Of a stretch of DNA of 64,000 nucleotides, positions 30,857 to 51,128 are shown one piece after another (positions within the stretch are counted from its first letter, which is position 1; every line of letters begins with the position of its first letter). The stretch is from assembly GCA_038135065.1 (NCBI GenBank), contig JAYPWI010000013.1, positions 14,497 to 78,496 on the forward strand. Reading direction: 5' to 3'. The translations under genes and the position numbers were made by a program. Below the pieces are notes generated by a model. That model was not told the DNA's origin. It made no database searches and worked only from the letters and a program-made list of their open reading frames with translations. The DNA comes from Acidimicrobiales bacterium. GTDB lineage: Bacteria > Actinomycetota > Acidimicrobiia > Acidimicrobiales > Poriferisodalaceae.

Positions 30857-31816
30857 TCAGACGTAGGGCCAGCGTCGCTTGGACGTGCCCGAACTCTCCC
30901 TGGGGGCGGTGAGGGCCCAGCGGCGACGCCAGGCCGCGCCGTCCGGTCCGGCGATGCCCGGACTCACCTGGGCATGAGCTCGCTGGCGCGCGGCGAACCA
31001 ATTCCCCGTGGCCGTCTCGTCGGCCAGTGACTCGACGGCCTGCTGCAACCTGCGGGTGAACGTTCGGTTGTTGTCGTCTTCCGTGAAGTGGATGGGGCGG
31101 CCGAAATTGACGACTGACGCAGATCGGGTCGGCCAGTTCCGGCCCTTGCGGAGGATGTTGAACGTGCCCCGGATGTGTACGGGGACCACGGGTACCCCCG
31201 CCTGTTTGGCAAGGAAGGCAGCACCAGGACGGAACTCCTGCCCCCACCCGTCGGGCGAACGGCCACCTTCGGGGTAGATCACCATGCTCCAGCCCCCGCG
31301 CAACAGGTTCACCGCCTTCTCGATGGTGTTGCGGTTGATCGAGGTCCGCTCGATTGGGATAGCGCCGATGAACAGGGCTGACAGGGCAGCCGAGTACTGA
31401 TTGCCGAAGAAGTAGTCGGCAGCCGCTCCGACGACCAGCTTGCTCCGCCAGGGTTCGGGAACCGAGGTGATGATCACCGGTGTGTCGGCGTGGCTCTGGT
31501 GGTTGGCTGCGAAGATCGCCGCCCCCTCGAGGTCGTGGAGACGGTCCAAGCCCCTGATGTCGGGTCGTGCGTAATAGCGCACGATGCCCTTGCCGATGGT
31601 GGCCAGGGCGACCTTGCGGGCCATCCGGGCCGGATAGCGCCTGGCCCAATCGGTGTCGTAATTGGCGCCGACACGACTGGGCAACGGAGACAGCCCCTTG
31701 GGTGTCGGAGCCGCTCGCAGTGGGAACTCGGCCCGCCGGACCACCTTGGTCACCGACGCCTTGGCCCGCTTCGGGCCGAGGTGCCGAATGGCCGGACGAC
31801 GGTTGGGGTCGTTCAC
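30857..31816 (-). CDS. lysophospholipid / 1-acyl-sn-glycerol-3-phosphate acyltransferase (PlsC-like)
   Basis: FAANHQSHADTPV (HX4D motif) and VIYPEGGRSPDG (PEGxR/T motif). The GTG start at 31816 overlaps the upstream stop (GTGA at 31813-31816). Confidence 0.85.
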   Translation of the reverse strand: MNDPNRRPAIRHLGPKRAKASVTKVVRRAEFPLRAAPTPKGLSPLPSRVGANYDTDWARRYPARMARKVALATIGKGIVRYYARPDIRGLDRLHDLEGAAIFAANHQSHADTPVIITSVPEPWRSKLVVGAAADYFFGNQYSAALSALFIGAIPIERTSINRNTIEKAVNLLRGGWSMVIYPEGGRSPDGWGQEFRPGAAFLAKQAGVPVVPVHIRGTFNILRKGRNWPTRSASVVNFGRPIHFTEDDNNRTFTRRLQQAVESLADETATGNWFAARQRAHAQVSPGIAGPDGAAWRRRWALTAPRESSGTSKRRWPYV

Positions 31817-33402
31817 GTGACGTCCGCCATCAGGACCGGCGGGTTGTGGATGTGGGTGATCGTCGGCTGGGTGCCGACAACGTCGACTGCGATTTCCAGG
31901 GCGTCGTTCAGGGTCGATGCGGAGCGGAAGCCGAGGCGCTTCACGGAGCGTGGATCTCCACCCACCACGATCACCTGGCCGAGATGCTCGAGGGCATGGG
32001 CGCACCAGTACCACATGTAGAACGGATGCACGCCGTGGTACGCGTACGACGTGCGATAGAGGTGCCGGTACCACTCGTCTTCGGCGTAGCGGCGCTCATA
32101 GGTCCGTTCGATGACCTCAGGATCGGTGGTATCGGCCAGCACCTCCTCGAAGAAGTCGATGTAGCTGGGGTGATGGACCGGGTGGAACTCCCACGGGGTG
32201 GGGTGGGTCATGATCAACACGCCGCCCTCGCGTACGAGAGGCTTACCGCGGTAGAGGTTGAAGAAGTAGCCCAGGCCGAGGCAGGCCACCAGGATCGGGT
32301 TCATGATCGAGTTGACGTTGTAGGGGCCCAGGTAGGGCAAGCCCATGGTCAGTACGTCGGTCTGTCCCTGGACGGGGACGAGATGCTGGCGGTAGACGTT
32401 CTCGGTGGTGACCTTGTGAACGGCTTCGACCTCGCCTGCCTGGATCGAGGTGAGGCCGTAGGGCGCCCGGATGTTCTGCATCAGGGTGCGTGCCGTGCGG
32501 CGGGGCACGCGATCGAGGAACTTGGTGGTGCCGAGGAGCAACGCCCGGTCGCGGGGCGTCATCTCCCACTCCCGCTTCTGCAGGAAATGCCAGGGTCGGG
32601 GGAAGGTGTCGTTGTTGAGGGTGGTCTCGATCTGGAACACCTTCAGGCCTGCGTCGCGGATCAGCCGACCCTGGCGCCAGTTCTTGGTGTGGAGTTCGCT
32701 CTTCTCCTGGTCCATGAACGAGCGGGAGTGGCGCATCGTGTGCACGTTGTGGTGATGGCGCAGCGCCGTGTAGCCCGACAGGCCGGTGGCCACACTCTTG
32801 TGGCCGCCGTCCATCGACACGAGGTTGATGTTCACGTAGACGACCAAGTCCGACTCCACCGCCCGGGTAGAGATCACCACCTCCTCACCATGATCGGTGG
32901 TGCCCAGATGGGTCAGCCCCTCAGGGTCCTCTGCGTCGAAGTTGTAGAGCTGTCCGTGGGGGGCGAACGCGTCGTACACCCGGTCACCCACCGCATGCCG
33001 GAGCTCGTCTTCGGTCATCCGCCGGTGTAGGGCCAGGGCTGCGATGAGATGGACGTCGTCGACCCCGGCGGCCGCCGCGATGTCGAGGACCTGCTCGATG
33101 ATCCGTCCCCGGATGTCGGGTGCCTGCATCTGCGGAAGGGGCAGAGAGATGTCGTCGAATGCGATGGTGAGCTTCATGCCCGGCTTCATCAGGGCGGGCA
33201 GGGGTTCAGAGTCGCCCAGTGGGTTGTGGAGCGCCTCGTGGATCGCTCGGTCGACGTCGGCGATGGCGTCGAGGGGTTCGTTCGGGTACACGACCCGGCT
33301 TCCCACCGGCAGCTTCTCGAAACGGAAACCCTCCCCGTGGTGGAACAGGATCGGTGGGGTGGAGCGCTCGACGTCGAGGACGAGACCTCTGCGGGTACTC
33401 AT
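31813..33402 (-). CDS. LarA-like (lactate racemase N-terminal / DUF2088) domain protein, ~530 aa
   Basis: MSTRRGLVLDVERS...LTIAFDDISLPLP...VVYVNINLVSMDGGHKSVATGLSGY... GGHKS resembles the LarA SGGxK Lys-tether context (by eye). An ATGA overlap with the upstream gene lies at 33399-33402. Confidence 0.7.
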   Translation of the reverse strand: MSTRRGLVLDVERSTPPILFHHGEGFRFEKLPVGSRVVYPNEPLDAIADVDRAIHEALHNPLGDSEPLPALMKPGMKLTIAFDDISLPLPQMQAPDIRGRIIEQVLDIAAAAGVDDVHLIAALALHRRMTEDELRHAVGDRVYDAFAPHGQLYNFDAEDPEGLTHLGTTDHGEEVVISTRAVESDLVVYVNINLVSMDGGHKSVATGLSGYTALRHHHNVHTMRHSRSFMDQEKSELHTKNWRQGRLIRDAGLKVFQIETTLNNDTFPRPWHFLQKREWEMTPRDRALLLGTTKFLDRVPRRTARTLMQNIRAPYGLTSIQAGEVEAVHKVTTENVYRQHLVPVQGQTDVLTMGLPYLGPYNVNSIMNPILVACLGLGYFFNLYRGKPLVREGGVLIMTHPTPWEFHPVHHPSYIDFFEEVLADTTDPEVIERTYERRYAEDEWYRHLYRTSYAYHGVHPFYMWYWCAHALEHLGQVIVVGGDPRSVKRLGFRSASTLNDALEIAVDVVGTQPTITHIHNPPVLMADVT

Positions 33403-35720
33403 GAATGCATGGCCTTCCGGAGGGGAGGAGCGAGGGGGAGCCGTGGACGTGGCCCGCCGGGCGAGGTGGGCCAGTCTTCTGTGAGCCACCCCCGCTTGTC
33501 GGCGATGGTCACCAGTCTGGTCTCTGGGTTCACGGCGACGGGGTAACCCACGGCCTCGAACATGGGGAGGTCGGAGGCAGAATCGGCGTAGGCCACGCCC
33601 TGGGCTGGGTCGAGCCCGTTGGCGGCTGCCCAGTCGAGCATCAGCTGGGCCCGCACTTCGCCGGTTGGTGGGACGTCGACCATCTCACCGGTCAGTCGCC
33701 CGTTGCGACGGTCGATGCGTGCTGCCACGATGTCGTCGAAGAGGGGACGGAGGGGATGCACGGCGACATCGAGGGCGCCGGTGATCAGCACCGTCTTGTG
33801 ACCTGCGGCCCGGTGGGCACGCACCCGGCGTAGCCCGGCGGGGAACGACTTGGTGAGGATCATATGGCTCAGCATCTCGGCGGCGTCTGCCTCGAGTTGG
33901 TCGATCGGTGCACCCTTATAGCGCTGATAGAAGTAGCGCAGGAAGTCGGTCCTGTCCCGTCGGTCGCGGCGCCACAGTCCGGGGGCTTCGGTCAGGGTTC
34001 GGGCGGCGAAGCGCAGGCGTTGCCCGGTGTCGAGGTGGCGGGTGGCCAGCCAGGCGTAGCTCTCCACGACGTTGGAGGCGATCAGGGTGTTCTCCAGATC
34101 GAAGGCTGCGAAGTGACGCTCGGGATCGAGGACTTGGGCTCGCAGCCGCTCCTGGCGGGTTGGGCCGGTGCGCCGCTCGGGGGTTGTTTTGACTCGGGCC
34201 TGTACGACAACGGTTGGCAGATGGACCTCGGTGATGTAGTGGTGCCAGTCGATCACCCGGGGGTCGAAGCCGAATGCGTCCTGGTCGTCGGCAGGTAGGG
34301 CGTCCCATAGTTCGAGCGTTCGATGTACGCCATAGACGGCCTCGCACTTGCCGTAGGCCCCGTAGATCTGCACATATCCCTGGATCTGTTCGAGGCTGCG
34401 GCGCCGCTCGGCGAGGCGGAGCGTGAAGCTGTTGCGTCCACGGAGGGGAAGCCGATTCACCACCTTGTCGGCCACGTCGAACACCTTGGCGACTCGATCG
34501 AGCTGCTCTTCGAGTCCGACCGAGCCGGCGTACTTCCATTCGGTCGATGCGGTCGGGTGACCGTTGGCGTCGTACACGGGGTGTTCTTCGAACCAGGCCA
34601 TTGCAGTGTCGAGCAGCTGTTTGAACTGCAGGGGGTTCACCGAGCCCGACGCGATCTGGAATACCTCGGGCCGGGGCTGCGGACCTCGAGCCGCGGCCGC
34701 AATGATCGAGGCGGCCACCATGTCCACGGGGATCACATCGATGATGCCCTCGGGGTAGCCGGGGAAGGTGTTGAGCTCCCCTTTCGCAAACGAGACGATC
34801 AGGGGTTCTGCCATGCGGAAGCCCCGGATCCAGCCGGGCGATGGCTCGGCCCAGGCTGACTCGATGATCGAGGGACGAACGACGGTCAGTGGGACGTCAC
34901 CGTGGAGCTCCACGAGGGCGGTTTCGCCGAGGGCCTTGGAGTAGGTGTACACGTCTGGCCAACCCAGCGAACCGGCCCGCGACCGCCCTGCTTCGACCAT
35001 CTGCTGATCGACCCAGGACTGTCGGAGTTGTTCGGTCTTGGCTGCGAGCATGGGGAGGCCGGCAGCACCGAGCTCTTCCCTGGCTCCTTTCCGGAAGACG
35101 TCGAGCTGCTCGGGTGTTCGGCTACGAGCATCGAGATCACCTCGCGTTCGACGAGCCGCCGCCACCTCGGCCCGCCAGTCGACCTGCACTTGGAATGGGG
35201 TACCGGCGAGGAACTCCTCATCGGCCGAGCCGCGTCGGTTTCCGGCCACGTAACAGGTGGATACCGCGACCAGATGGGGGGTGGTGCCCGCCGCATGCAG
35301 TAACTCGAGGATGCGGTTCGGGCCGAGCAGGTTGATTTCGATCGAGGTGTCGAGTGGGCTGTCGAAGCTCACCGTCGCAGCGCTGTGGATGATGGTGTCG
35401 CAGGTAGCGAACGTTGTGGCGTCCTCGGCACTCAGGCCGAGACCATCACGCGACACGTCGCCATCCACGACGGTGATGCGTCGCTCGCAGATCTCGTCGA
35501 ACCGGTCACCCCACTCGGAGCGAAGGCGATCGAAGGCATCGTTGCGCAGGATCTCCCGCTGCACTCTTCGGCGGCCATCGGAACGCCGCCCGGGACGCAC
35601 GAGCAGCACGAGTTCGCAGTCGGGAACAGATCGAAGCAGTCGCTCTACCAGGGCGGTGCCCAGAAAGCCGGTACTGCCGGTGACACCTATGCGGTGCCCG
35701 GCAAGAGCGTCTGCGATCAC
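33399..35720 (-). CDS. fusion protein: fatty acyl-CoA reductase-type SDR (NAD_binding_4-like) plus C-terminal HAD-IB hydrolase domain
   Basis: The N-terminal part has IGVTGSTGFLGTALVERLL (NAD site), YTYSKALGE (YxxxK) and VVRPSII. The C-terminal ~250 aa have AAFDLENTLIASN (a DxDxT variant, D-x-E-x-T), LITGALD and AYADSASDLPMF (HAD motif IV). Confidence 0.8.
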   Translation of the reverse strand: MIADALAGHRIGVTGSTGFLGTALVERLLRSVPDCELVLLVRPGRRSDGRRRVQREILRNDAFDRLRSEWGDRFDEICERRITVVDGDVSRDGLGLSAEDATTFATCDTIIHSAATVSFDSPLDTSIEINLLGPNRILELLHAAGTTPHLVAVSTCYVAGNRRGSADEEFLAGTPFQVQVDWRAEVAAARRTRGDLDARSRTPEQLDVFRKGAREELGAAGLPMLAAKTEQLRQSWVDQQMVEAGRSRAGSLGWPDVYTYSKALGETALVELHGDVPLTVVRPSIIESAWAEPSPGWIRGFRMAEPLIVSFAKGELNTFPGYPEGIIDVIPVDMVAASIIAAAARGPQPRPEVFQIASGSVNPLQFKQLLDTAMAWFEEHPVYDANGHPTASTEWKYAGSVGLEEQLDRVAKVFDVADKVVNRLPLRGRNSFTLRLAERRRSLEQIQGYVQIYGAYGKCEAVYGVHRTLELWDALPADDQDAFGFDPRVIDWHHYITEVHLPTVVVQARVKTTPERRTGPTRQERLRAQVLDPERHFAAFDLENTLIASNVVESYAWLATRHLDTGQRLRFAARTLTEAPGLWRRDRRDRTDFLRYFYQRYKGAPIDQLEADAAEMLSHMILTKSFPAGLRRVRAHRAAGHKTVLITGALDVAVHPLRPLFDDIVAARIDRRNGRLTGEMVDVPPTGEVRAQLMLDWAAANGLDPAQGVAYADSASDLPMFEAVGYPVAVNPETRLVTIADKRGWLTEDWPTSPGGPRPRLPLAPPLRKAMHS

Positions 35721-35789: not shown

Positions 35790-36380
35790 ATGGCCGCTCC
35801 CAAGACCCGAGACCGTGTTGTCGACGCTGCCTTGTGGGCGTTCGGCACCCGGGGGTACGACGGCACCTCTCTCGATGACGTGGCAGGCGAGGTCGGCATC
35901 ACCAAGCAGGCTGTCCTCTACCACTTCCCGACCAAGGAAGAATTGCTGCGCTCGAGCATCGAGGTGGCGGCCGAGGAGGTTGGTGCTGCCCTGGCGCAGG
36001 CACTCCGGTCCGTGCCGCCCGGGTTCGGGCGAGTGGAAGCCATCGTCAAGGCGACCTTCTCCCTCGCTGCCCGGCGCCCAGAGGTGCTCGGTTTGGTGCG
36101 GTCGGTCACCCGCCAGGGCGGGGCGCCCGCTGGTGAGCTGGCGGGCCGGTTGTCGGCCCTGCTCGACGATGCCGTTGCCTTCATGGCGGCAGAGATGGAG
36201 GCTGGTCGCTTCCGGAGTCTGGAACCTCGCATGGTGGTGTTGGCCATCTACTCGTCAGTGATCGGCGTGGCCACCGAGCCCGAGGTCATGAGGGTGCTCG
36301 GCGTCGAACCCGACCTGCGATCCCTGGTCCAGGCCCGGCGCCAGATGATCGAGTTTCTGCGGGCGGCATTGTGTCCGTGA
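35790..36380 (+). CDS. TetR-family transcriptional regulator
   Basis: MAAPKTRDRVVDAALWAFGTRGYDGTSLDDVAGEVGITKQAVLYHFPTKEELL. Confidence 0.9.
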   Translation: MAAPKTRDRVVDAALWAFGTRGYDGTSLDDVAGEVGITKQAVLYHFPTKEELLRSSIEVAAEEVGAALAQALRSVPPGFGRVEAIVKATFSLAARRPEVLGLVRSVTRQGGAPAGELAGRLSALLDDAVAFMAAEMEAGRFRSLEPRMVVLAIYSSVIGVATEPEVMRVLGVEPDLRSLVQARRQMIEFLRAALCP

Positions 36381-36399: not shown

Positions 36400-37398
36400 C
36401 TAGCCCGCTGTGCCGCCCTCGGCACGGTCGGCTCGTTCGTTCAGAAAGTAGATCTCGCAATTGGCGACTGCTCGGCCTCCACAGGAGGCCCCGTAGCGTT
36501 CGTAGATGCTCCCCCGTGGAGCGAAGGCGTAGAGGTCATCGCAGGCCTGAGGGTTGCGCAGCCCGCAGGCCGCCCACAGCTGGTCCAGCAAGTCGTCATC
36601 TCCCGGTGGCGGGTCCTCTGCCCGGATCTCCTCGAGGATGGGCGGTGTGCCGTCATCGCCGAGAAGCTGGCGGCAGTAGGTCGTGGCGCGTCCGCCGCAT
36701 GTCAGCCCGAACTGGTAGTAGTCGGAGTTGCCCGGGGCCGTGAGGAGGAGTTGGTCACACGCTTGTGCACTTCCCGCCGCGCAGCGCTCCCACCACGGAT
36801 CGAGAACGGAATCCTCGCCCGGCGCCGGAGAATCCGGGGTCAGGGCCTCGGGCACGACCGTCTCACCGAGCAGGCTGGAACAGCGCAGGTTGAGGCGTCC
36901 TCCGCAGCTGAAGGCGAACGCTTCGTAGTCCGAGCCGGGGGTCGACACGATCAGCAGCTCGTCGCAGGCCTGTGCCTCCCCGGCGCCGCAGGCCAGCCAC
37001 AGCGCATCGAGATCATCGTCGAGTCCCGGAGGTCGGTCGTCGGGGTCGAAGCGGTCCGGCGCGTCGGCCAGCGTTGCCGGCACCCCCGATGTGTCGATCT
37101 CCTCGGATTCTCCATCCCCGTCATCGGCAGGCTCGAGCAGGCAGATGTCGCGGGCGATGGCAATGTTCTGCGTCTGTTCGGCCGACAGCTCTTCGTCGAG
37201 TTCGTCGACGACTACCTGATAGTCGCGTGCCAGGCGTTCCTCGATGCATGCGGCTTGGGCAGTCGTGAGCTCGTCGTCGCCCGTGGCCCGGCGAACTGCG
37301 CCGTCCGTGTCGATTCCGCTGCACGCGGCTCCGAGGCCGAACAAGGCGATCGCCATTGCCGTCCGCCGCAGCTCGGCGGCTGCGGTTCGCGTCCTCAC
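36400..37398 (-). CDS. lipoprotein with three tandem four-cysteine repeats, function unknown
   Basis: GTG 37398 (a GTGA overlap with the ddl stop) gives VRTRTAAAELRRTAMAIALFGLGAAC SG, a signal peptide with a lipobox-like GAAC. The alternative start is ATG 37359. Confidence 0.7.
   Translation of the reverse strand: MRTRTAAAELRRTAMAIALFGLGAACSGIDTDGAVRRATGDDELTTAQAACIEERLARDYQVVVDELDEELSAEQTQNIAIARDICLLEPADDGDGESEEIDTSGVPATLADAPDRFDPDDRPPGLDDDLDALWLACGAGEAQACDELLIVSTPGSDYEAFAFSCGGRLNLRCSSLLGETVVPEALTPDSPAPGEDSVLDPWWERCAAGSAQACDQLLLTAPGNSDYYQFGLTCGGRATTYCRQLLGDDGTPPILEEIRAEDPPPGDDDLLDQLWAACGLRNPQACDDLYAFAPRGSIYERYGASCGGRAVANCEIYFLNERADRAEGGTAG
36451..37020 (-). repeat. three tandem ~55-65-aa coding repeats (W-x2-C-x3-G-x3-AC-D-x-L ... 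S-x-Y ... CGGR-x4-5-C)
   Basis: The repeats are DDDLDALWLACGAGEAQACDELLIVSTPGSDYEAFAFSCGGRLNLRC, DSVLDPWWERCAAGSAQACDQLLLTAPGNSDYYQFGLTCGGRATTYC and DDLLDQLWAACGLRNPQACDDLYAFAPRGSIYERYGASCGGRAVANC. Confidence 0.8.
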
Positions 37399-38498
37399 GC
37401 CAGCTTGCTCGCAATGGCGCCGACGGAACGTAGAGCGGTGCCGTCGGCGCCGTCGGTCCTGAAGCGCCGGGTGGGACCCTGAGCTGCCTCGGCGAGCATG
37501 TCCGTCAACAGGCGTTCGAAGGGGATTCCCTGTTCGGACCAGAAGTACCAGCTCAGCGAGCCGGGAATGGTGTTGATCTCGTTGACCCACAGGTCGTTGC
37601 CCGACCACAGGAAGTCGATGCGGGCCACCGACCTGACCATGGCCAGGTCGGCCACCGATGCAGCCATCGACGTCAGCCTGTTCGCCAGTTCACCGGGAAG
37701 ATCGGCCGGTAGCTCGCGGGGGGCGCTGGCCATGCCCTGCTCACCGCCGAGGTACTTCTCGGCATAGGTGTAGATGTGGTCACCGCCACCACGCAGCGGC
37801 CGCTCGATGGCGCTGAACGACAGCTCGGGCCAGGTGCGGACCGAGATGTTCAGATCGACCGCATCCTCGAGGAAGCGCTGGACCACGGCTCCCTCCCGCA
37901 GGAGGGGTTGCGTCCTGGCCAGGGCCTTGGCCGTTTCGAGGTCGTCCACCACCTCGATGCCGATGGACGAGCCGCCGAACCTGGGCTTGACGATGAGTGG
38001 TCCACCAGCGTCGAGTTCGAGGTCGTCGGTCAGAAGCCACAGGTCGAGGCAGGGCACCCCGGCCCCGTGCATCGTGCCGCTGAACGCCAACTTGTCCATA
38101 CCGATGGCGGCGCCCCACTGGCTCGGTCCCGTGTAGCGCAGCCCGGCCAGGTCGAACATGGCCTGCAAGGTGCCGTCCTCCCCGGGTACGCCGTGGCAGC
38201 AGTTCACGATCCCGCCGATGTCGAGCGGCGCGCGACGCCCGCGGCGGCCCTCGGTGGCGAACCCGCCATCGCCTCCGGTGAGCAGTAGCACGGGGGTCGC
38301 CGATCCGGGGACCCCGTTGGCGAAGTCTCCGGCCTCGACATCGGCAGGCACCTGGTACCAGTCACCGGCCTTCGACCAGTAGAGGGCGATGACCTGCTGT
38401 CCGGACGCACGCAGCGCGTGGACGGCCTGCAGGCCCGTCAGGACCGAAATGTCGTGTTCGGGGGAGGGGCTGCCGAAGCAGACGGCGGGCGAACTCAT
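37395..38498 (-). CDS. ddl: D-alanine--D-alanine ligase family ATP-grasp enzyme
   Basis: FGSPSPEHDISVLTG...CCHGVPGEDGTLQAMFDLAGLRYTGP...IVKPRFGGSSIGIEVV...VNEINTIPGSLS. Confidence 0.85.
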   Translation of the reverse strand: MSSPAVCFGSPSPEHDISVLTGLQAVHALRASGQQVIALYWSKAGDWYQVPADVEAGDFANGVPGSATPVLLLTGGDGGFATEGRRGRRAPLDIGGIVNCCHGVPGEDGTLQAMFDLAGLRYTGPSQWGAAIGMDKLAFSGTMHGAGVPCLDLWLLTDDLELDAGGPLIVKPRFGGSSIGIEVVDDLETAKALARTQPLLREGAVVQRFLEDAVDLNISVRTWPELSFSAIERPLRGGGDHIYTYAEKYLGGEQGMASAPRELPADLPGELANRLTSMAASVADLAMVRSVARIDFLWSGNDLWVNEINTIPGSLSWYFWSEQGIPFERLLTDMLAEAAQGPTRRFRTDGADGTALRSVGAIASKLA

Positions 38499-38548
38499 GC
38501 CTCGCTATGAAAGCGCAGAATGCCCCATCGTGGGTGGCAGAGGAGGTT

Positions 38549-40072
38549 TCATGGGTAATGGTCGGGCAGATCGTTCTCGTAGAGCACGGCGTCCCCCGCC
38601 CTGAGGTTCGCCCGCACCCAGGCCACCGCCGCATCTCGATCGGGCAGCAGGGTGACCCGGGCGCGCTGGTCCCGAGCCCCGAAGAGGAGCGCCTGGCGGT
38701 TGGTGAGCCCCACGATCAGCAGGTCGTCGGCCACCTGGGCGGCAGCTTCGGCGAACCGCTCGTTCTCCGGTCGCTGACGCCGGCCGAGCTCGACCATGCC
38801 GGGTGTCACGACAACCCGGCGATTGGCGTCGAGTCGTTCCAGGGTGGCGACCGCGGCTGCCGCTCCGGCTGGGTTGCTGTTGTAGGTGTCGTCGACGACG
38901 GTGACACCGTTGGGGCTGACGGCAACTTGACGCCGATGCTCGGCCGCAGGCACCGACGGAAGCCGCGCTGCGATGTCCTCATCGCGAATCCCGAGGGCGG
39001 CCGCCGCAGCGACGGCGCATGCCAGGTTGGTGGGAGCCGCATCGATGTCGAGCCCGCTGATGACCACCCGGCCCTCGCGGATGATCTCGATGCCGTCGTC
39101 CCGTCGGATGGCCGCCACGTCAGCGGTGGGGTCGCTGGCCGAGCAACGGATGACCCGGATGCCGGACGCGTCGAGCCGATCTGCCTCTGCGGCGAGCCCA
39201 TGAGCGTCCACATTGAGAATGGCAGTGCGGCTGGTTGCGAAGATCTCGCTCTTGGCGGCCACGATGCGGTCGAGAGAGCCGAACCGTTCGAGGTGCACGG
39301 GCCCAATGGCGCACAGCATCGAGATCGACGGTCGGATCCACGAGACCATGGAGGCGATCTCGCCCGGTCCGTAGGTGCCCATTTCGGCTACGAAGACCTC
39401 GGTGTCGAGCGTCAGGTGTTCGTTGATGGCCCGTGACAGGCCAGCGGTGTTGTTGAACGACGCAGGGCTTGCCACAACCGATCGTGACCCGGCAACCAGG
39501 TGTCGGATGTAGCCCTTGATAGTGGTCTTCCCGTACGACCCTGTGAGGGCGACGCGCACGGGGTCGATCCGGTCAAGGGTGGCTGCTGCTGCACGCACGT
39601 AGCGTTGGGCCACTCGGCGCTCGATGGGGGCCAGGAGGGCGAGTGCCCCGTCGACGGCCAGCGGCACGCAGCACGCCAGGGCGGCGCTGATCACGACGGT
39701 CGAGTCGGTCAGCACCCCGACCCCGATGGCGATTGCGCCGATCACCAGGGTGGCCAGGGCCACCGTGCGAAGGCGGCGTGTCCAGGCAAGCGGACTCGTC
39801 CGACCTCGCAGGCCGAGTCCCCGCGGGGCGACCACCACGATGAGCGCGACCACGACGGCGAGGGGTGGTAGCCAGATCGAGCCAACAGTTGCGGCAACGG
39901 CTGCAAGGGCCGAGGTCCGGTTGAGCCATCCTCGGGTCCACCATCGGAGGGCGAAGGTCGTGGTCGAGGGACTGAGGTAGTGCTCGCGCTGCGCCACCCT
40001 GAGCCACCGAAGGGTCGAGATCCCGCTGCCGATGAGGGTGACGGCAACGTACAGCGCTGACAGGGTGTTCAC
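38549..40072 (-). CDS. Mur-ligase family protein (MurF-like central and C-terminal domains) with a ~150-aa multi-TM N-terminus in place of the UDP-MurNAc-binding domain
   Basis: The P-loop LTGSYGKTT is at residues ~177-184, EMGTYGPGEI follows, and DDTYNSNP is the MurF-type motif. Residues ~1-150 are mostly hydrophobic (ALYVAVTLIGSGI, AAVAATVGSIWLPPLAVVVALIVVV, VALATLVIGAIAIGVGVL, VVISAALACCVPLAVDGALALL). The GTG start overlaps the upstream stop (GTGA at 40069-40072). Confidence 0.75.
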   Translation of the reverse strand: MNTLSALYVAVTLIGSGISTLRWLRVAQREHYLSPSTTTFALRWWTRGWLNRTSALAAVAATVGSIWLPPLAVVVALIVVVAPRGLGLRGRTSPLAWTRRLRTVALATLVIGAIAIGVGVLTDSTVVISAALACCVPLAVDGALALLAPIERRVAQRYVRAAAATLDRIDPVRVALTGSYGKTTIKGYIRHLVAGSRSVVASPASFNNTAGLSRAINEHLTLDTEVFVAEMGTYGPGEIASMVSWIRPSISMLCAIGPVHLERFGSLDRIVAAKSEIFATSRTAILNVDAHGLAAEADRLDASGIRVIRCSASDPTADVAAIRRDDGIEIIREGRVVISGLDIDAAPTNLACAVAAAAALGIRDEDIAARLPSVPAAEHRRQVAVSPNGVTVVDDTYNSNPAGAAAAVATLERLDANRRVVVTPGMVELGRRQRPENERFAEAAAQVADDLLIVGLTNRQALLFGARDQRARVTLLPDRDAAVAWVRANLRAGDAVLYENDLPDHYP

Positions 40073-40812
40073 ATTGCTCCTTCGAGCAGGCGATCGATTG
40101 CGCGGCGGACCTCGTCCGGTGCCTCGGTCGGTGTGAAGTGACCGACGCCCTCGAGCACGGTGAGCCGGGCGTTCACCAAGGCGGCTTCTGCACGAGTCGC
40201 GATCTCGGGAGGCGCGGCGTCGTCGAGTTCGCCCCAGAGCAGTTCGACGGGTGCCGAGATGGCGTTGAGCTGCCGCTCGTAGGACTCGTTGACGGTGGTG
40301 ACCAGTACATCGCGCATCACGCCCTCTGCCGCTCGGTAGTCAGCGCTGCCGTATCGATCTCGCAGCCCCTCGAGGCGGTGATCGGGGAGGATGCCCATCC
40401 GATGCAGACGCCGTCCGATCCGGTAGCGGAGCGCTGGTCGGCCGCGGCGCTCGGCGCGGTGCAGCAGGGGCGCGCCGGTGAGGACGAGACCGGCGACCGC
40501 GCCAGGTCGACGGCAGGCGAGATGTACGGCGACGCGCCCTCCGAAGCTGTGTCCGACGATGACGACGGGAAGTTGGCACGCTTCGAGCACGGGCTCGATC
40601 AACTCGGCGTACATCTCGGCCCCACCCCCGTCAGGTGGTGGGGGGCTGGCCCCGAATCCAGGGAGGTCGAGGGCCAGTGCGTCGAGTCCGTCGAGGGCCT
40701 CAGCAAAGTCGCGATGACTCCGACCCCAGCCGTGAAGGGCCAGCACACGGGCTTGTCCGGACCCCGATCGGGAACCGAAAAGAGAACCGTCGCCGAACGC
40801 GCTGAGGGGCAT
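40069..40812 (-). CDS. alpha/beta-fold hydrolase
   Basis: From ATG 40812: VLALHGWGRSHRDF...VVIVGHSFGGRVA (the GxSxG nucleophile elbow)...LEGVGHFTP. The longer ORF-track version overlaps the upstream large gene in another frame. Confidence 0.8.
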   Translation of the reverse strand: MPLSAFGDGSLFGSRSGSGQARVLALHGWGRSHRDFAEALDGLDALALDLPGFGASPPPPDGGGAEMYAELIEPVLEACQLPVVIVGHSFGGRVAVHLACRRPGAVAGLVLTGAPLLHRAERRGRPALRYRIGRRLHRMGILPDHRLEGLRDRYGSADYRAAEGVMRDVLVTTVNESYERQLNAISAPVELLWGELDDAAPPEIATRAEAALVNARLTVLEGVGHFTPTEAPDEVRRAIDRLLEGAM

Positions 40813-40822
40813 CACGACAACG

Positions 40823-43330
40823 CTACGCCCCGTCGTGGCGTCTCCGGTCCATTTCCCCGTGACTCCTCTCGCCTCGCAATCGCCGCTGGGCCGACAGTGG
40901 GAGGGATCGCTGGGGATGTCCTGCATCCTGAGTTCCACGTCCACCGAGGGCGGCCCGGGCGCTCCACAGCACCTGATCGGTGTGGGAGATCCGGAAGAGG
41001 TTCGCAATGAACCACATCCGGTCGTCGGGGTCTGACCAGTCGTGGACCTCGGTTCCGGCGAGATCGCTTCCGTCCGTGGACCCCGTATGTCCGATCTCGA
41101 CGGGGCCCTGACGGGTGATGACCCTGGTCGGCTCCGCCCCGTTGGTGAACCAGCGTGCGGGGTCGGTGGGAAGCCCGCCGTCGGCTGCCGTTGTGGGCGG
41201 TCCGCCCCAGCCGGCCAGAGGGGGTAGGCCGACGTGAGCCTGGCCGCCGTGCCGCGTGACGAGGACATCTCCGACCGCGATCGGGTCGGTCGGTCGTGGG
41301 TCGAGTTCGTCGAGCAGGTCGTCCCCGGCGATGAGGTTCGGGCCCACAGGGGTGTCGGTGGGGAGGCCCTGAGACGGGCGAATGACCGGGGCGTCGGGTC
41401 CGGTGCCGAGTCGGATCTCGATGGCCGACGTTGCCGCAACCGCCGCATCGATGCCCACCACTCGGCCTGCCAGGCTCGCTGCCCAGCGCAGCCCGTCGGT
41501 CGACGGCTGTTGGTGGATGACCTCCTCCAAGGCGTGCTGTGCCCCCGCCTGCTCGTGCACGGCCAATAGGAGATTTGCCTGCATGGTCAATCGCTGGCGG
41601 GTCAGGTCGTCGGCTTGGTGGGCCGCTGCGAGATAGAGCAGCAGGGCGTCGCGAAGCTCCGCGTGTCCAGGGCGGAACATCGGGCGGTCCGGATCGGTCG
41701 GATCCCGGTTCGACGCAAAGAAGTCTGTGATCTCAGTGGCCCGGGGCGCTCGGGAGGGTCCGAAGGACTCGGTCAGGGCGGCCAGACGGGGGGCGATGTC
41801 ACCGAAGATGTATTGGTTTCCGTCGGCTAGTGCTTGCCGGTCGTGCCACGACGGGTGCAAGCCGAGCACGGTTTGCCTGCCCGTCAGGCCCGCGTGGACG
41901 GCGTGGGAGGCAACGGTCCCGAACATGGGCCATGTCGCGCCGCTGTGCCCGGGAGGGACAGGGAGTGCGTGGTCGTGGGTAGCGCCGTTGAGCAGTCGCT
42001 CGAGTCGTTCTGCCAGGGCTGCGTAGTGCACGGTGAACAGGCGGTTGCGAACTCCGCTACCCGACTCGGGTAGGCGTGCGACGAGGCTGAACTGCGCTGT
42101 GAAGGACATGGGGCCCTCGAGGGCGGCCGACGCGAGATCGAGGACACCCTCGTCGGAGTGGGCTCGAATCGGCAGTCCCGGCGTCCGGCCCGACAGATCG
42201 TCGAAGGTCGCTGGCAGGCCGGCGACGAAGGTCAGGGCACCCGTTGGATCATCGGCGAACGCGTGAAGGTTCACAGCCGTCGCCACCACATCGGCGTACG
42301 ACACCAGGCCGTCCCCCCTACCGCTGCGGGGGTTTGGCCCCTCGGTCGCAGTGTCGAGCAGGTCGAAGGTCGATGGTCCGTCAGTTTGCTCGGTGGGCAC
42401 GAGCCGGGACAGCACACCCCGAACCTCGGGTGCGAGATCGGATCGATCGAGGATCCGGGCGATGTCCTCTCGGCTGATCAGCCCGTCGACCCCGTTGGTG
42501 ATCGCTCCGTCGATGCGTTCGAACAGGTCGCGGTCCGCAAGGACGATGGACGCATCGATCGCTGCCAGCACTCGGTCGATGCTCTCCCGGGTGAGCCCCG
42601 ACTGCTGCAGGGCTGGGCGACTCCGATGCTGTCGGGGGGTCGTGGTCAACGCTGCGAGCAGGGCGGGGCGATCGAGCAGGTTGGTCGCCAGCCTGCGCAT
42701 CCAGGGTGCTGCTCGGTCGTTGCGGGCCACCGCGCTGAGGTCGGCGGTCTCCAGGCGCCCATCAGGTGTCGTTCCGGCGGCCGCCTCCAGCAGTTCCAGA
42801 TGGTCGCCCGCAATGGCGATGCCCCTCCTTCCCGTGGTGGAACCTCCGGGGTGCGGCACCACGCTGACCAGGCGGGTCGCCAGTGCGCTCCCCGGCGGCG
42901 CCACGCGGACGGCCATCGTGGCCACGCGGCCTCCCATCAGGGGTCCGAGATGGGCCAGCAGGGCCGCTACCTCGCGGTCCCCCAGAGCAGAGAGCAGTCG
43001 GGCGGTAGCCAACCGGGCGATGTGTCCGACGAGGGTGTTCGTGGGGCGACCGTCGGATCGGCCAGCCACTGCCACCAGGCTCGTCACGAGTTCGGCCCGG
43101 ACCTCGATCCTCGGGTCGACGCAGAGGAGATCGACCCCGATGGGTTCGGACAGGATGTCGGCCCGATGCTCGAGCTCGGCAGCCAGTCGGCTGCATCGGG
43201 CAGCATCCTGGTGGAGTTCGGTGAGGGGGACGAGATCGCTCGCGCCCTGGGCGCGTAGCAGGCTGATGCGCCGTGCGACGTCGTCTGCGCGCTGCCCCAA
43301 TGTGCGTAGGTCGCTTGCGAGGGACCGCAC
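40823..43330 (-). CDS. large (~835 aa) soluble hypothetical protein; candidate type VII-associated substrate or accessory protein
   Basis: It is a continuous ORF, and I recognise no family. The start must lie downstream of the preceding gene's stop (43360); GTG 43330 is the first candidate (uncertain). The N-terminus is helical (VRSLASDLRTLGQRADDVARRISLLRAQG). Three DG-h-h-x-x-x-D-h motifs are present. Confidence 0.6.
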   Translation of the reverse strand: MRSLASDLRTLGQRADDVARRISLLRAQGASDLVPLTELHQDAARCSRLAAELEHRADILSEPIGVDLLCVDPRIEVRAELVTSLVAVAGRSDGRPTNTLVGHIARLATARLLSALGDREVAALLAHLGPLMGGRVATMAVRVAPPGSALATRLVSVVPHPGGSTTGRRGIAIAGDHLELLEAAAGTTPDGRLETADLSAVARNDRAAPWMRRLATNLLDRPALLAALTTTPRQHRSRPALQQSGLTRESIDRVLAAIDASIVLADRDLFERIDGAITNGVDGLISREDIARILDRSDLAPEVRGVLSRLVPTEQTDGPSTFDLLDTATEGPNPRSGRGDGLVSYADVVATAVNLHAFADDPTGALTFVAGLPATFDDLSGRTPGLPIRAHSDEGVLDLASAALEGPMSFTAQFSLVARLPESGSGVRNRLFTVHYAALAERLERLLNGATHDHALPVPPGHSGATWPMFGTVASHAVHAGLTGRQTVLGLHPSWHDRQALADGNQYIFGDIAPRLAALTESFGPSRAPRATEITDFFASNRDPTDPDRPMFRPGHAELRDALLLYLAAAHQADDLTRQRLTMQANLLLAVHEQAGAQHALEEVIHQQPSTDGLRWAASLAGRVVGIDAAVAATSAIEIRLGTGPDAPVIRPSQGLPTDTPVGPNLIAGDDLLDELDPRPTDPIAVGDVLVTRHGGQAHVGLPPLAGWGGPPTTAADGGLPTDPARWFTNGAEPTRVITRQGPVEIGHTGSTDGSDLAGTEVHDWSDPDDRMWFIANLFRISHTDQVLWSARAALGGRGTQDAGHPQRSLPLSAQRRLRGERSHGEMDRRRHDGA

Positions 43331-43359
43331 TGCGAACGGGGAGAGACCGACCCAGCTGC

Positions 43360-43644
43360 TCAGTGTGCAAGGCCCATGTCCAACAGGGGATCGGCTGCCA
43401 TGCTGAGTCGCTCGGCGGTCGCCCGGGCTCGGAGGCCCGATACCTCGGCGCGGAGGCGGTGCTCGAGGTGGAGCCAGCGCCGCCGCTGGTCCTCCAGCAG
43501 GCGGCCGACGTCGGCGGTCAGGCGCCCGCCGGCCATCACCCTCTCGAGGGGGTAGCGACATGCAGCGGCCAGCTCGCCGAGTTCCAGCGCAGCTCGTTCG
43601 AGGTGCGTCGCGATCGCGTCGAGCTCATGGGGTGGAGGGCTCAT
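43360..43644 (-). CDS. small helical-hairpin protein (94 aa), possible WXG100-partner-like protein
   Basis: MSPPPHELDAIATHLERAALELGELAAA...MAGGRL...LLEDQRRRWLHLEHRLRAEV shows two predicted helices around a Gly turn. The start overlaps the upstream stop (ATGA at 43641-43644). Confidence 0.55.
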   Translation of the reverse strand: MSPPPHELDAIATHLERAALELGELAAACRYPLERVMAGGRLTADVGRLLEDQRRRWLHLEHRLRAEVSGLRARATAERLSMAADPLLDMGLAH

Positions 43645-44135
43645 CGAACCGCGAGGCCGTGGTTCATGGCTTCGTCGAGGCGTTGGTGTTGCTGCTCGAC
43701 GGCGCCCGCCATCGACAGGGCAGCACTGTGGGCGGCGTCGAGGGACACCCGGAGCCCTTGCACGTACGTCTCGATGCCATCAGCCATGCGGGCGATGCTG
43801 GCCGTGAAGTCGGAGAAGGCCTGTTTGGTGGCCGTCTCGCCTGCACCGAGCGCGCGGTCGAGGTCGTGCTGAGCGTCGAGGAACCGGGCGGCGTTGGCGC
43901 CGTTCCAGACCGTTGCGTCGGCTCGGGCCGTCGATGCGCTGACGGAGGACCTGAGGCTGTCCATCGTGGTCCCGATGTCGGACATGGCCCGCTGGGCAGC
44001 CGCACGCATCTCGTCGGCCATACCCGTGGTAGCCGCTGTCGCTCGTTGCTGAACCTCCGCGATGTCCGATGAGGTTGCCCGAAGTCTGGCGGCGAGAGCG
44101 AGTAGGTCGTCGAGTTGGGCGCCGAGCATTGACAT
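43641..44135 (-). CDS. WXG-motif (ESAT-6/WXG100-like) protein, extended 164-aa form
   Basis: From ATG 44135 (GGAG 7 nt upstream): MSMLGAQLDDLLALAARLRATSSDIAEV...ADATVWNGANAARFLDA (the W-x-G turn)...VEQQHQRLDEAMNHG. It is all-helical and Ala/Gln-rich like WXG100 proteins, and divergent from the EccC-like gene. Confidence 0.6.
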   Translation of the reverse strand: MSMLGAQLDDLLALAARLRATSSDIAEVQQRATAATTGMADEMRAAAQRAMSDIGTTMDSLRSSVSASTARADATVWNGANAARFLDAQHDLDRALGAGETATKQAFSDFTASIARMADGIETYVQGLRVSLDAAHSAALSMAGAVEQQHQRLDEAMNHGLAVR

Positions 44136-44160
44136 TGGTGATCTCCGTTCTGGTTGCCGT

Positions 44161-44197
44161 GTTGCACAGTGTGTTATGAAATAACATGAAATGCAAC
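44161..44197. promoter_or_regulatory. nested inverted repeat GTTGCA-N5-TGTTAT-GAA-ATAACA-N5-TGCAAC in the divergent type VII promoter region
   Basis: Read directly. The outer arms are 44161-44166 and 44192-44197, and the inner arms 44172-44177 and 44181-44186. It sits in a strongly AT-rich 100-nt intergenic stretch. Confidence 0.5.
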
Positions 44198-44241
44198 GAA
44201 AGATATTATTCGCGCCCGTGCCGGGTCGTCCTGAACCGTTG

Positions 44242-47200
44242 ATGGTGACCTGGGTGGGCCAGCAGGTGACCGTCCGTGACCTGCGCACGGCGCTCGACGT
44301 CGACGCGCCGCTCGTCGTGGAAGGAGTCCCTCGGGGCGAGGCGGATGCCCTCGACGAGGTCCTGGAACACGACGGTGTCCTGGTCGGCATCGCTCCTCCA
44401 GCCAACGGCCAGGCGCTTTCGCCACTTGGTCCGGTCCGGCGGCGCGCAGTGCGTACCGTCGTGTCGCCATCGTTGGAACTCGACACCACGGCCCCGTCGG
44501 CCCGTCCCGGGTCACCGCCCCCTGTTCCCTGGTTGAGCCTTGCGGCCCCGTTGCTAGGCGGCGCAGTGATGGTGGTGTTCATCGGGAGCACGGCGTTGGT
44601 GTTCGCCGGGTTGGGGTCTCTCATGTCCGCCGCTCGTTGGACGGAGCAGTACGTGGCCCACCGACGTGCGAAGCGGACCCATCGGGCGGAGCTCGCCTCG
44701 CTGGCCGATCAGCTTCGAACGAGCCTGGTGGCACAGCGGGATCGCTATCGCCGAACCGCATGGGGTCAGCGTCGGGGTCTCGCGGTCAGGCGCAGCTGGA
44801 TCGACGGGTCCCGTCCGGGGCTGTGGTCCCGACATCCGTCTGATGCGGGCGCCCTCGAGGTGGTGCTCGGTATCGGGGCAGAGCATGTGAGGTGGTCCAA
44901 CCGGCCATTGACCGACCTTGGTATCGACCCCGACGAGGATCGCTGGTCGCGGATCGACGGAGTGCCTCGGAGCGTCGACCTGGCCGATGGCGGCTTGGCG
45001 GTGGTCGGTCGCCGACTGGAGGACCGCCGAGCGGCGATAGCAACCGTCGTCCTGCAATTGGCCAGTCAGTTGGGTCCCGCCGACCTCGAGGTCGGGACTG
45101 TGGGGAGCGGCCACCTCTCGCCGATGTGGATGTGGTGGTTGCCCCACCGGAGCCGAGTCGAGGACTGGCCGAGGCGAGCGACGGCGATGGCTCGGATCGC
45201 CGTGGGTGACGAGTCGGACGGGTGGGATGACAGTCCCCTCGTGCGCTGGCTCGAGCGCTCGGAGACGCCGCTCGTGGTCGGTGTCGCCAGCCCCGACCGG
45301 GTGCCTGTCGGGTGTCGATGGGTCCTCGACCTCGACGCTGGCCTGGGTGTCGGTGAGGTGCGTGATCTCTCGACTTCGTCGGTCGTGATACTGCAGCGAG
45401 TGCAGGGATGTGACCCCGCCGAGGCTGCCGACCTGGCGTGGCGTATCGGCCGACGGTCCGACGACCAGATCGAGGGGCAGACGGGAATCCCTGATACGGC
45501 GAGCCTGGAGGAACTCAGCGGCTTGGGGGCCCCGGACGGCGGAACCTCGGGACGTTCGGCGCTCTGGGCGCCCGTCGGGCTCGGGGCAGGTGGGCCGTGT
45601 TGGGTTGACCTGGTCGGCCACGGGCCGCACGTCTTGGTGGCGGGCACCACGGGATCCGGCAAGAGCGAGTTGCTCTGTGGGTGGCTGGCCGGATTGGGGG
45701 AACGCTACGACCCCGCAGGGCTGAGGCTCGTCTTGTTCGACTTCAAGGGGGGCGGTGGCCTCGACGCCGTCGCCCGGCTGCCGCAGTGCTGCTCCCTGGT
45801 CACCGACCTCGAGTCTGGGCTTGCGTGGCGTGCCCTTCGATCGCTCAGCGCCGAATTGCGGCGACGTGAAGAGGTGGTCCGGACGGCCGGTGTGACCGAC
45901 ATCGCCGACGCGCCCCTCGATGTTGACATCGACCGATTGGTCGTTGTGATCGACGAATTCGCCGTGCTCGTCGACGAGGTGCCCGCTGCCCTCCCTCTGT
46001 TGGTTGATGTGGCCCAGCGCGGCCGATCCCTGGGAGTTCATCTGGTGCTTGCCACCCAGCGACCCGCTGGCGTGGTCGATCCCCGAATCCGGGCCAACAC
46101 CAATCTCCGAATCTGTCTGCGGGTCCAGAACGATCGGGACGCTGAGGACGTCGTCGGTGTCAGCGAACCGGCCCGCTTTCCGGTCGAGCTACCGGGCCGA
46201 GCGCTGCTCGTGGTCGGAGGCGGGGACGGCATGGTGGTGCAGGGGGCATTCGGCGGCGGCCAACCGAGACCCCGCCTCGAGTTGCGGACACCGGCCGGGG
46301 AACTCCGGGGCATGGTCCCGGCCGCGGCTGGTGTCCATCGCACCAGCATGGGGACCGCTGTAGCTGCGGCACGCACACGCTGGGATCGAACCCGCTGGGG
46401 AGACACCCCATGGCTGGCACCCCTGCCCGCCCGTTCGCCCGCAGAGGTCCCTGTTGGGCGCGGCTCGAGCAATGGTGACCGCAGTCCGTCGGCCCGCCGG
46501 ATCGGGATCATCGACGAGCCTGACCTGCAACGCCAGCGGGAGCTGTGGTGGGACCCCACCTCAGAGCACCTCCTGGTGGTGGGCGGGGCTGGTCGGTCGG
46601 GCTTTCTCCATGCCGCCGTTGCGGCCGCGTGCTCGGGGATCGGCCCGGGTGCCCTCCACTGCTATGTGGTGGCCCCCAACGGTGATCGCCTGGCAGCATT
46701 GGCCACCTATCCGCATTGTGGGGGCGTGGTCGATCCCGCTGATGTCGATCGCTGCGGGCGCCTGTTCGACCTGCTGGATGTTCCCGCCGAGGTGCCGCGT
46801 GTCGTGGTGATCGGCGACGCCGGGTGGTGCCTGCAACGGTGGGGGGAGGCGCGTATCGGTGGCCTGCAGGAGCGCCTCGAGGCCCTGGTCGACTCGGCCA
46901 CCACTGCTCGGGTTGCGTTGGGAATCGCTGATGGACGCGGTCTTTCGCCGACGGTGATTGCCGGGAGCACGGTTCGGGTCAGCCTGCCCCCGGTCGCTCC
47001 GGAACGGTTGGGTGCCCTGTGGCCTGCTCACCTTGCCCCCTCGAGCCTCGGGGACTTGGGGCTGGATTTGGTGAGCGGCCAACCCGTGTCCCTGCTCGCA
47101 GATGTCGACCCTGCCGACCCTGGACTTCAGCCGTGGGGCATCGAGCCCCCGGAGTTGCCTTCCCCGCCCCGGATTCCCGAGATCCCTGACCCCCTGACCA

Positions 47201-47814: not shown

Positions 47815-47875
47815 CCTGGCCTCGAGGATTATTCTCACCGGCTGTCCGTAGGCGAGATGTTGGAGAGAACGAGCG

Positions 47876-49362: not shown

Positions 49363-49394
49363 GGGGGCGAAGAGACGCGTCGCGTCAGCTGGTT

Positions 49395-51128
<1,734 letters not shown>

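Follow-up and report, generated by a model that had tools for sequence, protein, structure and literature searches.

In the genomes of Acidimicrobiia, genes for an alpha/beta hydrolase, a Mur ligase with a transmembrane (TM) N-terminal domain (TM-MurF) and a D-alanine--D-alanine ligase (Ddl) form a conserved unit, in that order. The ligase of this trio is probably the housekeeping D-Ala-D-Ala-adding enzyme (MurF) of the lineage, tethered to the membrane, and we infer that these organisms have no other MurF. The unit was analysed starting from a stretch of 64,000 nucleotides (nt) of an Acidimicrobiales contig, JAYPWI010000013.1, which is referred to below, at its full length, as the window. Loci retrieved from other genomes and contigs are numbered L001, L002 and so on, and all synteny counts refer to 88 loci (87 relatives and the window).

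Catalytic domains of the ligase

By every test applied to its sequence and its predicted fold, the catalytic part of the ligase is that of a MurF. Pfam places Mur_ligase_M at residues 177-320 (E 2.7e-23) and Mur_ligase_C at residues 379-497, and the top NCBIfam family is TIGR01143 murF (E 5e-53), with murD reaching only 2e-17. The seven top sequence matches in the PDB are all MurF. The best of these alignments begin at chain residues 91 (4CVK), 74 (3ZL8) and 89 (1GG4), i.e. past the N-domain, while the A. baumannii MurF chains 4ZIY and 4QDI align from chain residues 79 and 77 and reach query residue 127 at the earliest. The AlphaFold2 model of the ligase, built from an alignment of 95 homologs, has a predicted local distance difference test score (pLDDT) of 94.2 and a predicted template-modelling score (pTM) of 0.88. 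When this model was used as a Foldseek query, ranks 1-10 were taken by MurF structures (E 4e-21 to 3e-17), followed by MurE, MurD and MurC.

The agreement extends to individual residues. Query residues 171-455 are 29% identical to residues 99-391 of Escherichia coli MurF, and K182, E230, H260 and K274 align with K111, E158, H188 and K202 of that enzyme, all four being invariant in the 95 homologs. They correspond to the P-loop lysine (within TGSYGKTT), the Mg-binding glutamate and histidine, and the lysine matching E. coli K202. The motif DDTYNSNP at 394-401 aligns with DDSYNAN of E. coli MurF, and D394, T396, N400 and P401 are likewise invariant. The original prediction, made from the letters of the window, had read MurF-type catalytic domains from the P-loop and the DDTYNSNP motif; both are present, and murF is the top family as well as the top fold. 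Public names for these proteins vary between 'Mur ligase family protein', 'hypothetical protein' and MurF, the last being applied to many members by IMG and NCBI.

The N-terminal membrane domain

It had also been proposed that the canonical N-domain of MurF is replaced by hydrophobic helices, and this holds family-wide. Since ligase homologs span 96-100% of the query and the N-terminal region carries invariant motifs, the membrane domain is not the product of a mis-called start. Structure prediction confirmed the helices, and the TIGR01143 profile aligns only over its positions 63-402, beginning at query residue 160. In the model, the helices of the domain comprise residues 3-29, 36-45, 48-64, 71-81, 99-122, 125-134 and 136-169, and the domain modelled alone with AlphaFold2 reaches a pLDDT of 95.4. 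Mean counts of lysine plus arginine are 5.9 in loop 1, 4.5 in loop 3 and 4.9 in the linker, those of the remaining loops being close to zero. Such a distribution points to a topology in which the N-terminus is outside, the chain crosses the membrane five times and the conserved motifs lie in the cytoplasm beside the catalytic domains. The high-confidence prediction is that of an integral membrane protein whose catalytic domains are cytoplasmic.

An invariant cluster of basic and aromatic residues is placed by the predicted topology at the cytoplasmic face of the membrane domain. Residues invariant in the 95 homologs include R22, R25, Q28, R29, E30, H31, Y32, F40 and W44, as well as P83, L86, G90, T98, R99, R100, D141, P149 and E151. 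They fall within the motifs RWLRVxQREHY (22-32), FAxRW (40-44) and PxGLxxxGRTSxLxWTRR (83-100), together with D141 and P149-x-E151.

Residues 1-170 gave no match to any Pfam family even at E values up to 10, and a Foldseek search of the PDB with the membrane domain alone found no matching fold (best E 1.9, template-modelling score below 0.3). An exhaustive profile search of 1.84 billion representative proteins recovered the domain in 392 clusters (50% identity). In the best 150 of these 392 clusters, it stands at the N-terminus of proteins of about 500 amino acids (aa) or of shorter sequences, part of which are evidently fragments; only in a few odd entries is it preceded by other, mostly hydrolase-like sequence. 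Hydrolase sequence and ligase membrane domain occur in one polypeptide in P0341, an in-frame read-through, and in P0362, P0382 and P0271, which look frameshifted. Such joined sequences seem to stem from frameshifts or read-throughs where the genes overlap.

The coupled hydrolase and the D-alanine--D-alanine ligase

The hydrolase gene lies upstream of the ligase gene in 85/88 loci, and the sequence of the remaining three starts about 120-230 bases ahead of the ligase match. Its stop codon overlaps the ligase start (NTGA) in 65/88 loci, and in most of the others a candidate start of the ligase lies no more than about 20 nt away. This strict coupling suggests one-to-one expression of the two proteins, perhaps as a complex. 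The hydrolase appears to be catalytically intact: the nucleophile elbow reads GHSFGG, the putative triad Ser89, Asp197 and His225 is kept (each residue identical in at least 97% of 84 aligned homologs), and further family-specific motifs are conserved among the same 84 sequences. No specific NCBIfam family was assigned to it at the cut-off. It resembles only generic alpha/beta hydrolases (MenH, BioH, esterases, dehalogenases), all far under their cut-offs.

The third protein of the trio has both Ddl domains of Pfam (PF01820 and PF07478). Compared with E. coli DdlB it carries an insertion of about 50 residues and a C-terminal extension. Its active site appears to be of the ordinary D-Ala-D-Ala type, as in 5/5 sequences E14, S177/S178, K248-Y249, R293, D295, E307 and N309 align with the identical DdlB residues E15, S150/S151, K215-Y216 (the Lys-Tyr pair of the omega loop), R255, D257, E270 and N272. 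The ddl gene is found downstream of the ligase gene on the same strand in 81/88 loci, in 62 of which it lies within 150 nt, and other genes sometimes lie between the two.

Distribution of the trio

When one genome per species was scanned, at least 577 species-representative genomes were found to carry a relative, and the best 80 of these are nearly all labelled Acidimicrobiia or members of that class. Acidimicrobiia sequences with the trio include OZ242183.1 (1.80 Mb), OZ243045.1, NZ_OZ242344.1 and CBDBZP010000005.1. The trio is also present in the most divergent members that were looked up, namely L133 (55% GC, on a contig of 2.06 Mb), L138 and the TARA Oceans scaffolds L134 and L135. On the last two (30.5% GC) it lies among rpmB, recG, rsmD, coaD, rpmF, plsX, rnc and smc. 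The composition of these scaffolds fits Ca. Actinomarinales, an order of Acidimicrobiia with genomes of about 1.1 Mb, 32.5% GC and very few paralogs, for which the wall structure is stated as unknown (PMC7771536). The supplements of that paper contain no mur annotations. Whether the gene block is syntenic in relatives had been raised as a question by the original prediction, and the answer differs between its parts: the trio is conserved across loci, and the type VII genes and the lipoprotein gene described below are not.

Position relative to the dcw cluster

A tblastn search of the whole window with the proteins of E. coli detected no murE, mraY, murD, ftsW, murG or ftsZ gene, in agreement with the earlier statement that genes of the dcw (division/cell wall) cluster are missing near the block. 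Nor do dcw genes occur within 10 kb of the trio in the 88 loci. The location outside dcw had been offered as an argument against a housekeeping role, and this argument is not supported by comparison with other actinobacteria. The complete genome of the cultured Nocardioides dongkuii, CP059903.1 (L137, 1491545-1504636), has the order mraZ-rsmH-ftsL-ftsI-murE-mraY-murD-ftsW-murG-murC-ftsQ, without murF, and a related contig of 89 kb (L136) shows the same order, again without murF. As actinobacterial dcw clusters lacking murF exist, the position of the trio says little about its role. In Firmicutes such as Bacillus subtilis and Staphylococcus aureus, ddl and murF form a separate housekeeping operon outside dcw.

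Other mur-like genes were met in the course of these searches. In L058, a metagenome-assembled genome (MAG) of Acidimicrobiales, the trio lies 4 kb from genes for a MurL-like epimerase, MurD and PgeF. The gene for the MurL-like epimerase of Acidimicrobiales overlaps that for a MurD-type ligase (L058 14907-18323, L130 8668-11287, L131 8674-11332), which some sources name UDP-MurNAc-L-Ala--L-Glu ligase. Given that name, the pair represents the Xanthomonas-type MurD2/MurL route to D-Glu. In Acidimicrobiales these murL-murD pairs are always away from dcw genes, and the homologs of the L058 MurD belong to stand-alone pairs. Two contigs were considered as dcw clusters of Acidimicrobiia and rejected. 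L100, which combines dcw genes with the same type of MurD, is Nocardioides-like by its MraY and, like L137 and L136, has no murF between murE and mraY; its murL-murD2 pair stands inside the dcw cluster, behind mraY and a 314-aa open reading frame (ORF) with no Pfam family above cut-off. L129 is a non-actinobacterial contig of 47% GC.

Function of the trio

As the housekeeping MurF, the ligase would catalyse the step that completes the peptidoglycan precursor in the cytoplasm. Judging from domain homology, the adjacent Ddl would supply D-Ala-D-Ala, and the ligase would use ATP to activate the terminal carboxylate of the muramyl-tripeptide, to which it would add the dipeptide. Ligation would take place at the inner face of the membrane, beside the step of MraY. 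The five-helix membrane domain would stand in for the soluble domain that binds uridine diphosphate (UDP) in other MurFs, and its cytoplasmic Arg/His/Tyr/Trp/Thr motifs may hold the diphosphate-sugar end of an acceptor that is UDP-linked or, less likely, undecaprenyl-linked. Alternatively, these motifs could dock the ligase to membrane machinery, in this case MraY. The hydrolase would be an obligate partner; precursor editing and ester removal or deprotection are guesses at what it might do.

This assignment is favoured, at the level of sequence, by the MurF-type catalytic domains and the ordinary Ddl residues, including the Lys-Tyr pair. It is also favoured by a conservation that is class-wide and apparently confined to a single locus (at least 577 genomes, 392 clusters), and by the retention of the trio, among core genes, in genomes that are apparently extremely streamlined.

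Several observations weigh against it. The soluble N-domain, which in MurF takes the UDP end of the substrate, is absent, residues 1-170 being predicted membrane helices instead, and we know of no MurF that works without this domain. The TIGR01143 score of 180.4 bits is under the curated cut-off of 288.6. The ligase is a member of the Mur ligase superfamily that fails two defining features of MurF, the N-domain and the curated score. Similarly, the Ddl scores 164.6 bits with TIGR01205, under the curated cut-off of 245.65, and in six loci there is room downstream of the ligase gene yet no ddl there. The ligases end in an invariant tail, LYENDLPDHYP, without an aligned counterpart in the canonical MurFs compared (the alignment with E. 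coli MurF stops at query residue 455, short of this tail). The catalytic part is about equally distant (27-31% identity) from the MurFs of E. coli, Streptomyces, Nonomuraea, Brevibacillus and Neochlamydia; by this measure it is no closer to actinobacterial MurFs than to others, contrary to simple vertical descent. Finally, the hydrolase is obligatorily coupled and to all appearances intact, and it has no role in the canonical MurF pathway.

Much of this could also be accommodated by a paralogous pathway, in which ordinary murF and ddl genes are located elsewhere and the trio ligates the dipeptide to another membrane-associated carboxylate, belonging to a lipid, to a polymer or to a lipid-linked glycan, and the hydrolase processes substrate or product. 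A membrane domain with invariant motifs of its own, an active-type hydrolase that is always present, scores under both the MurF and the Ddl family cut-offs, a differing C-terminal tail and an identity of only about 30% to every canonical MurF tested are all consistent with such a role, as are the lipid-related genes (a fatty-acyl-reductase/HAD fusion and an acyltransferase) downstream of the trio in a marine clade. These neighbours are, however, found in only 14-18/88 loci. The Ddl active site looks to be of the ordinary D-Ala-D-Ala type, and no known family of such function was matched. Moreover, a redundant MurF/Ddl pair throughout a whole class would be unusual, and it would have to extend to the scaffolds of about 30% GC where the trio sits with core genes. 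We consider a paralogous role rather unlikely.

The loss of the UDP-binding domain could instead mean that the pathway has been re-ordered, with the ligase as sole MurF acting after MraY, on undecaprenyl-diphospho-MurNAc-tripeptide (lipid I/II). The membrane domain would then bind the lipid diphosphate, and the coupled hydrolase would provide a dedicated processing or editing step. The invariant Arg-rich motifs lie at the predicted cytoplasmic membrane interface, where the lipid diphosphate head would be, in a domain that is confidently predicted to adopt a fold without known relatives. The same motifs could, however, bind UDP or a protein partner such as MraY, and re-ordering requires that MraY take the tripeptide nucleotide efficiently. 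A change in the order of steps seems distinctly improbable, and a housekeeping MurF acting at the membrane is still the reading that we prefer.

Mur ligases are regarded as soluble cytoplasmic enzymes, and the N-domain of MurF as part of the substrate site. Here a whole class of bacteria, abundant in sponges, soils and oceans, appears to rely on a MurF with a conserved integral-membrane N-domain of unmatched fold, always expressed together with an active-type hydrolase. If the ligase is the housekeeping enzyme, it would provide a natural, genetically hard-wired example of the link between the Mur pathway and membrane steps (MraY) that has long been proposed, and it would define a new acceptor-binding or docking domain. 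If a lipid-linked acceptor were to prove true, the accepted order of the pathway would change and the domain would be a new membrane-embedded acceptor-binding domain. There is also a consequence for annotation, as these ligase and ddl genes fall under the curated MurF and Ddl cut-offs and are inconsistently named.

The locus in the window and its neighbouring genes

In the ORF list of the window, four minus-strand genes run head to tail (Table 1), and their previously reported coordinates, overlaps and gaps were confirmed in the sequence. The hydrolase stop and ligase start overlap in ATGTGA (GTGA at 40069-40072), 50 nt separate the ligase gene from ddl, and the ddl stop overlaps the GTG start of the fourth gene, for a putative lipoprotein (GCGTGA). 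The arrangement is more than chance, as it recurs in scores of related genomes.

Table 1. Features of the trio locus, in window coordinates
Feature	Coordinates	Strand	Basis or remarks
Alpha/beta-fold serine hydrolase, 247 aa, predicted cytoplasmic	40069..40812	-	Pfam Abhydrolase_6, Abhydrolase_1, Hydrolase_4
Mur ligase, whole ORF	38549..40072	-	Membrane domain and MurF-type catalytic part
Ligase N-terminal membrane domain, residues 1-170, five predicted TM helices	39563..40072	-	AlphaFold2, lysine plus arginine topology
Ligase MurF-type part: central ATP-binding and C-terminal domains	38549..39562	-	Mur_ligase_M, Mur_ligase_C
D-alanine--D-alanine ligase (Ddl), 367 aa	37395..38498	-	Dala_Dala_lig_N, Dala_Dala_lig_C
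Cys-repeat putative lipoprotein, 332 aa	36400..37398	-	Signal-like N-terminus, three four-Cys repeats

The fourth gene does not share the conservation of the other three. Its product has a plausible lipoprotein signal (…AMAIALFGLGAAC), ending LGAAC; the N-terminus RRTAMAIALFGLGAAC fits a relaxed lipobox pattern only, and the homologs are clearer in this respect (LVSAC, VVAC, LAAC). It contains three repeats of about 50 residues with four cysteines each, 15 cysteines in total, and has no Pfam or NCBIfam family. Homologs are found behind ddl in about 13/88 loci, from one marine and sponge-associated clade, and those with 15-17 cysteines and a lipobox follow ddl only in the window, L002-L004, L006-L012 and L023. 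The Cys-repeat lipoprotein, on the evidence of these sequences, is a clade-specific passenger outside the conserved core. With the lipoprotein restricted to one clade, the four genes cannot be retained as the unit that was initially envisaged: the conserved core consists of hydrolase, TM-MurF and Ddl.

Members of the Cys-repeat family are 313-391 aa long, with the repeat D.LLD.LW..C..G...ACD.L......S.Y..F...CGGR....C; examples are encoded at 36400-37398 of the window, L002 12696-13637 and L006 13898-14899, and in L008-L012 and L023. Several of these loci come from MAGs of Ca. Poriferisodalis/Poriferisodalaceae. In many soil and freshwater Acidimicrobiia, the gene behind ddl encodes a different membrane protein with the N-terminus (F)PRKLL..GE..V....PHW (L015, L017, L022, L029, L036, L037, L041, L046, L060, L068, L074, L075 and L078), which we take to resemble PH-like proteins of the YdbS/YdbT type. 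Further along, behind a divergent TetR gene (35799-36380), positions 30857-35720 of the window and the equivalent regions of L002-L007 hold a conserved set of neighbours, present in 14-18/88 loci. It comprises a protein of 773 aa in which a fatty-acyl-reductase-like NAD_binding_4 domain is fused to a HAD phosphatase domain, a protein of the LarN type (Lar_N) and an acyltransferase resembling PlsC.

On the other side of the trio, the hydrolase ATG is 10 nt past the stop of a gene for a 912-aa protein on the same strand, which belongs to a group of type VII-like genes. The original prediction had suggested a functional tie between the block and these secretion genes, by which the trio might, for example, modify the wall or a secretion substrate. 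The short spacing is in line with this proposal, and no promoter- or terminator-like site was found on that strand by a scan that is ill-suited to high-GC actinobacteria. The synteny speaks against it. In relatives the backbone consists of genes for a luciferase-like protein, a thiolase-like protein, Ppx, LeuA, the hydrolase, the ligase and Ddl. Among close relatives leuA is directly upstream of the hydrolase gene, and in L001-L005 the backbone is without type VII-like genes. The window has the same backbone, with LeuA at 49395-51098 and a break of about 8.5 kb (40823-49394). Encoded in this insertion are the 912-aa protein, which has no family, a 94-aa ORF, a WXG-like ORF of about 169 aa that gave no WXG100 match in Pfam, a divergent triple ATPase resembling EccC/EssC (256 bits where the cut-off is 778), an arylmalonate-decarboxylase-like (Amdase-like) protein (47876-48655) and an ORF of 299 aa. 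Of these, the EccC-like, WXG-like and 912-aa genes stand next to the trio in just 3/88 loci, the window, L006 and L007, at the same place in each. From this recurrence in L006 and L007 alone, the type VII-like stretch looks like a mobile or recently acquired cassette. A link to the secretion genes is unsupported, given their presence in so few loci and their insertion into a conserved leuA/hydrolase backbone; we rejected it and regard it as highly improbable.

Within this stretch, the 94-aa ORF (43360-43644) begins in an ATGA overlap (43641-43644) with the stop codon of the WXG-like ORF upstream of it. At its maximal length, this WXG-like ORF (43641-44624, 327 aa) overlaps the start of the divergent EccC-like gene, and its true start is therefore probably an internal Met near position 44150.

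Comparison with known systems

No description of a system with this make-up turned up in Pfam, in NCBIfam or in the literature searched, in keeping with what the original prediction had stated. The literature search yielded no paper pairing MurF with Acidimicrobiia and nothing on a membrane-anchored MurF or on the trio, and a PNAS survey of Mur chimeras does not list a MurF with a membrane domain. A tblastn search of PLSDB returned only canonical MurFs, at about 30% identity and over the catalytic part alone (from query residue 166 on), including plasmid-borne Streptomyces murF genes and one in a whole Nonomuraea chromosome filed as a plasmid. The plasmid-borne Streptomyces genes resemble the trio in location, as they encode a second MurF away from dcw.

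Several known systems use a Mur-ligase fold on substrates other than UDP-linked ones. PgsB/CapB is an amide ligase of this fold that is anchored in the membrane by its N-terminus and acts on a non-nucleotide substrate. It was not among the NCBIfam or Pfam matches of the ligase, which differs from it in being MurF-like in both domains, in having a multi-helix domain and in having Ddl as a partner instead of PgsC/PgsA. MurT, acting on lipid II, and CphA, acting on a polymer, are precedents for Mur-ligase domains with non-UDP substrates. Both identities were rejected for the ligase, as the matches are marginal (17 bits against a cut-off of 800 for MurT, 23 bits against 850 for CphA), and neither MurT/GatD nor cyanophycin synthetase has a membrane domain of the kind found here. 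Glycopeptide-resistance clusters carry an extra murF together with a Ddl-type ligase; the trio locus, in contrast, is without vanH/vanX, and its Ddl keeps the D-Ala-D-Ala signature.

The ddl-murF operons of Firmicutes are similar to the trio in the adjacency of the two genes, but their order is ddl then murF, their MurF is soluble and full-length, and there is no hydrolase partner. The closest likeness is to canonical MurF itself (TIGR01143; 1GG4, 4CVM, 4QF5, 3ZL8), with which the trio ligase shares the central and C-terminal domains, the P-loop, the Mg ligands, the lysine that aligns to K202 of E. coli MurF, the motif DD(S/T)YNxN and the pairing with a D-Ala-D-Ala ligase. It departs from canonical MurF in the five-helix membrane domain of about 170 residues that takes the place of the soluble N-domain, in the LYENDLPDHYP tail, in its sub-cut-off score and in the hydrolase coupled upstream, and it reads 'TPGMVELG' where E. 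coli MurF reads 'VGDMAELG'.

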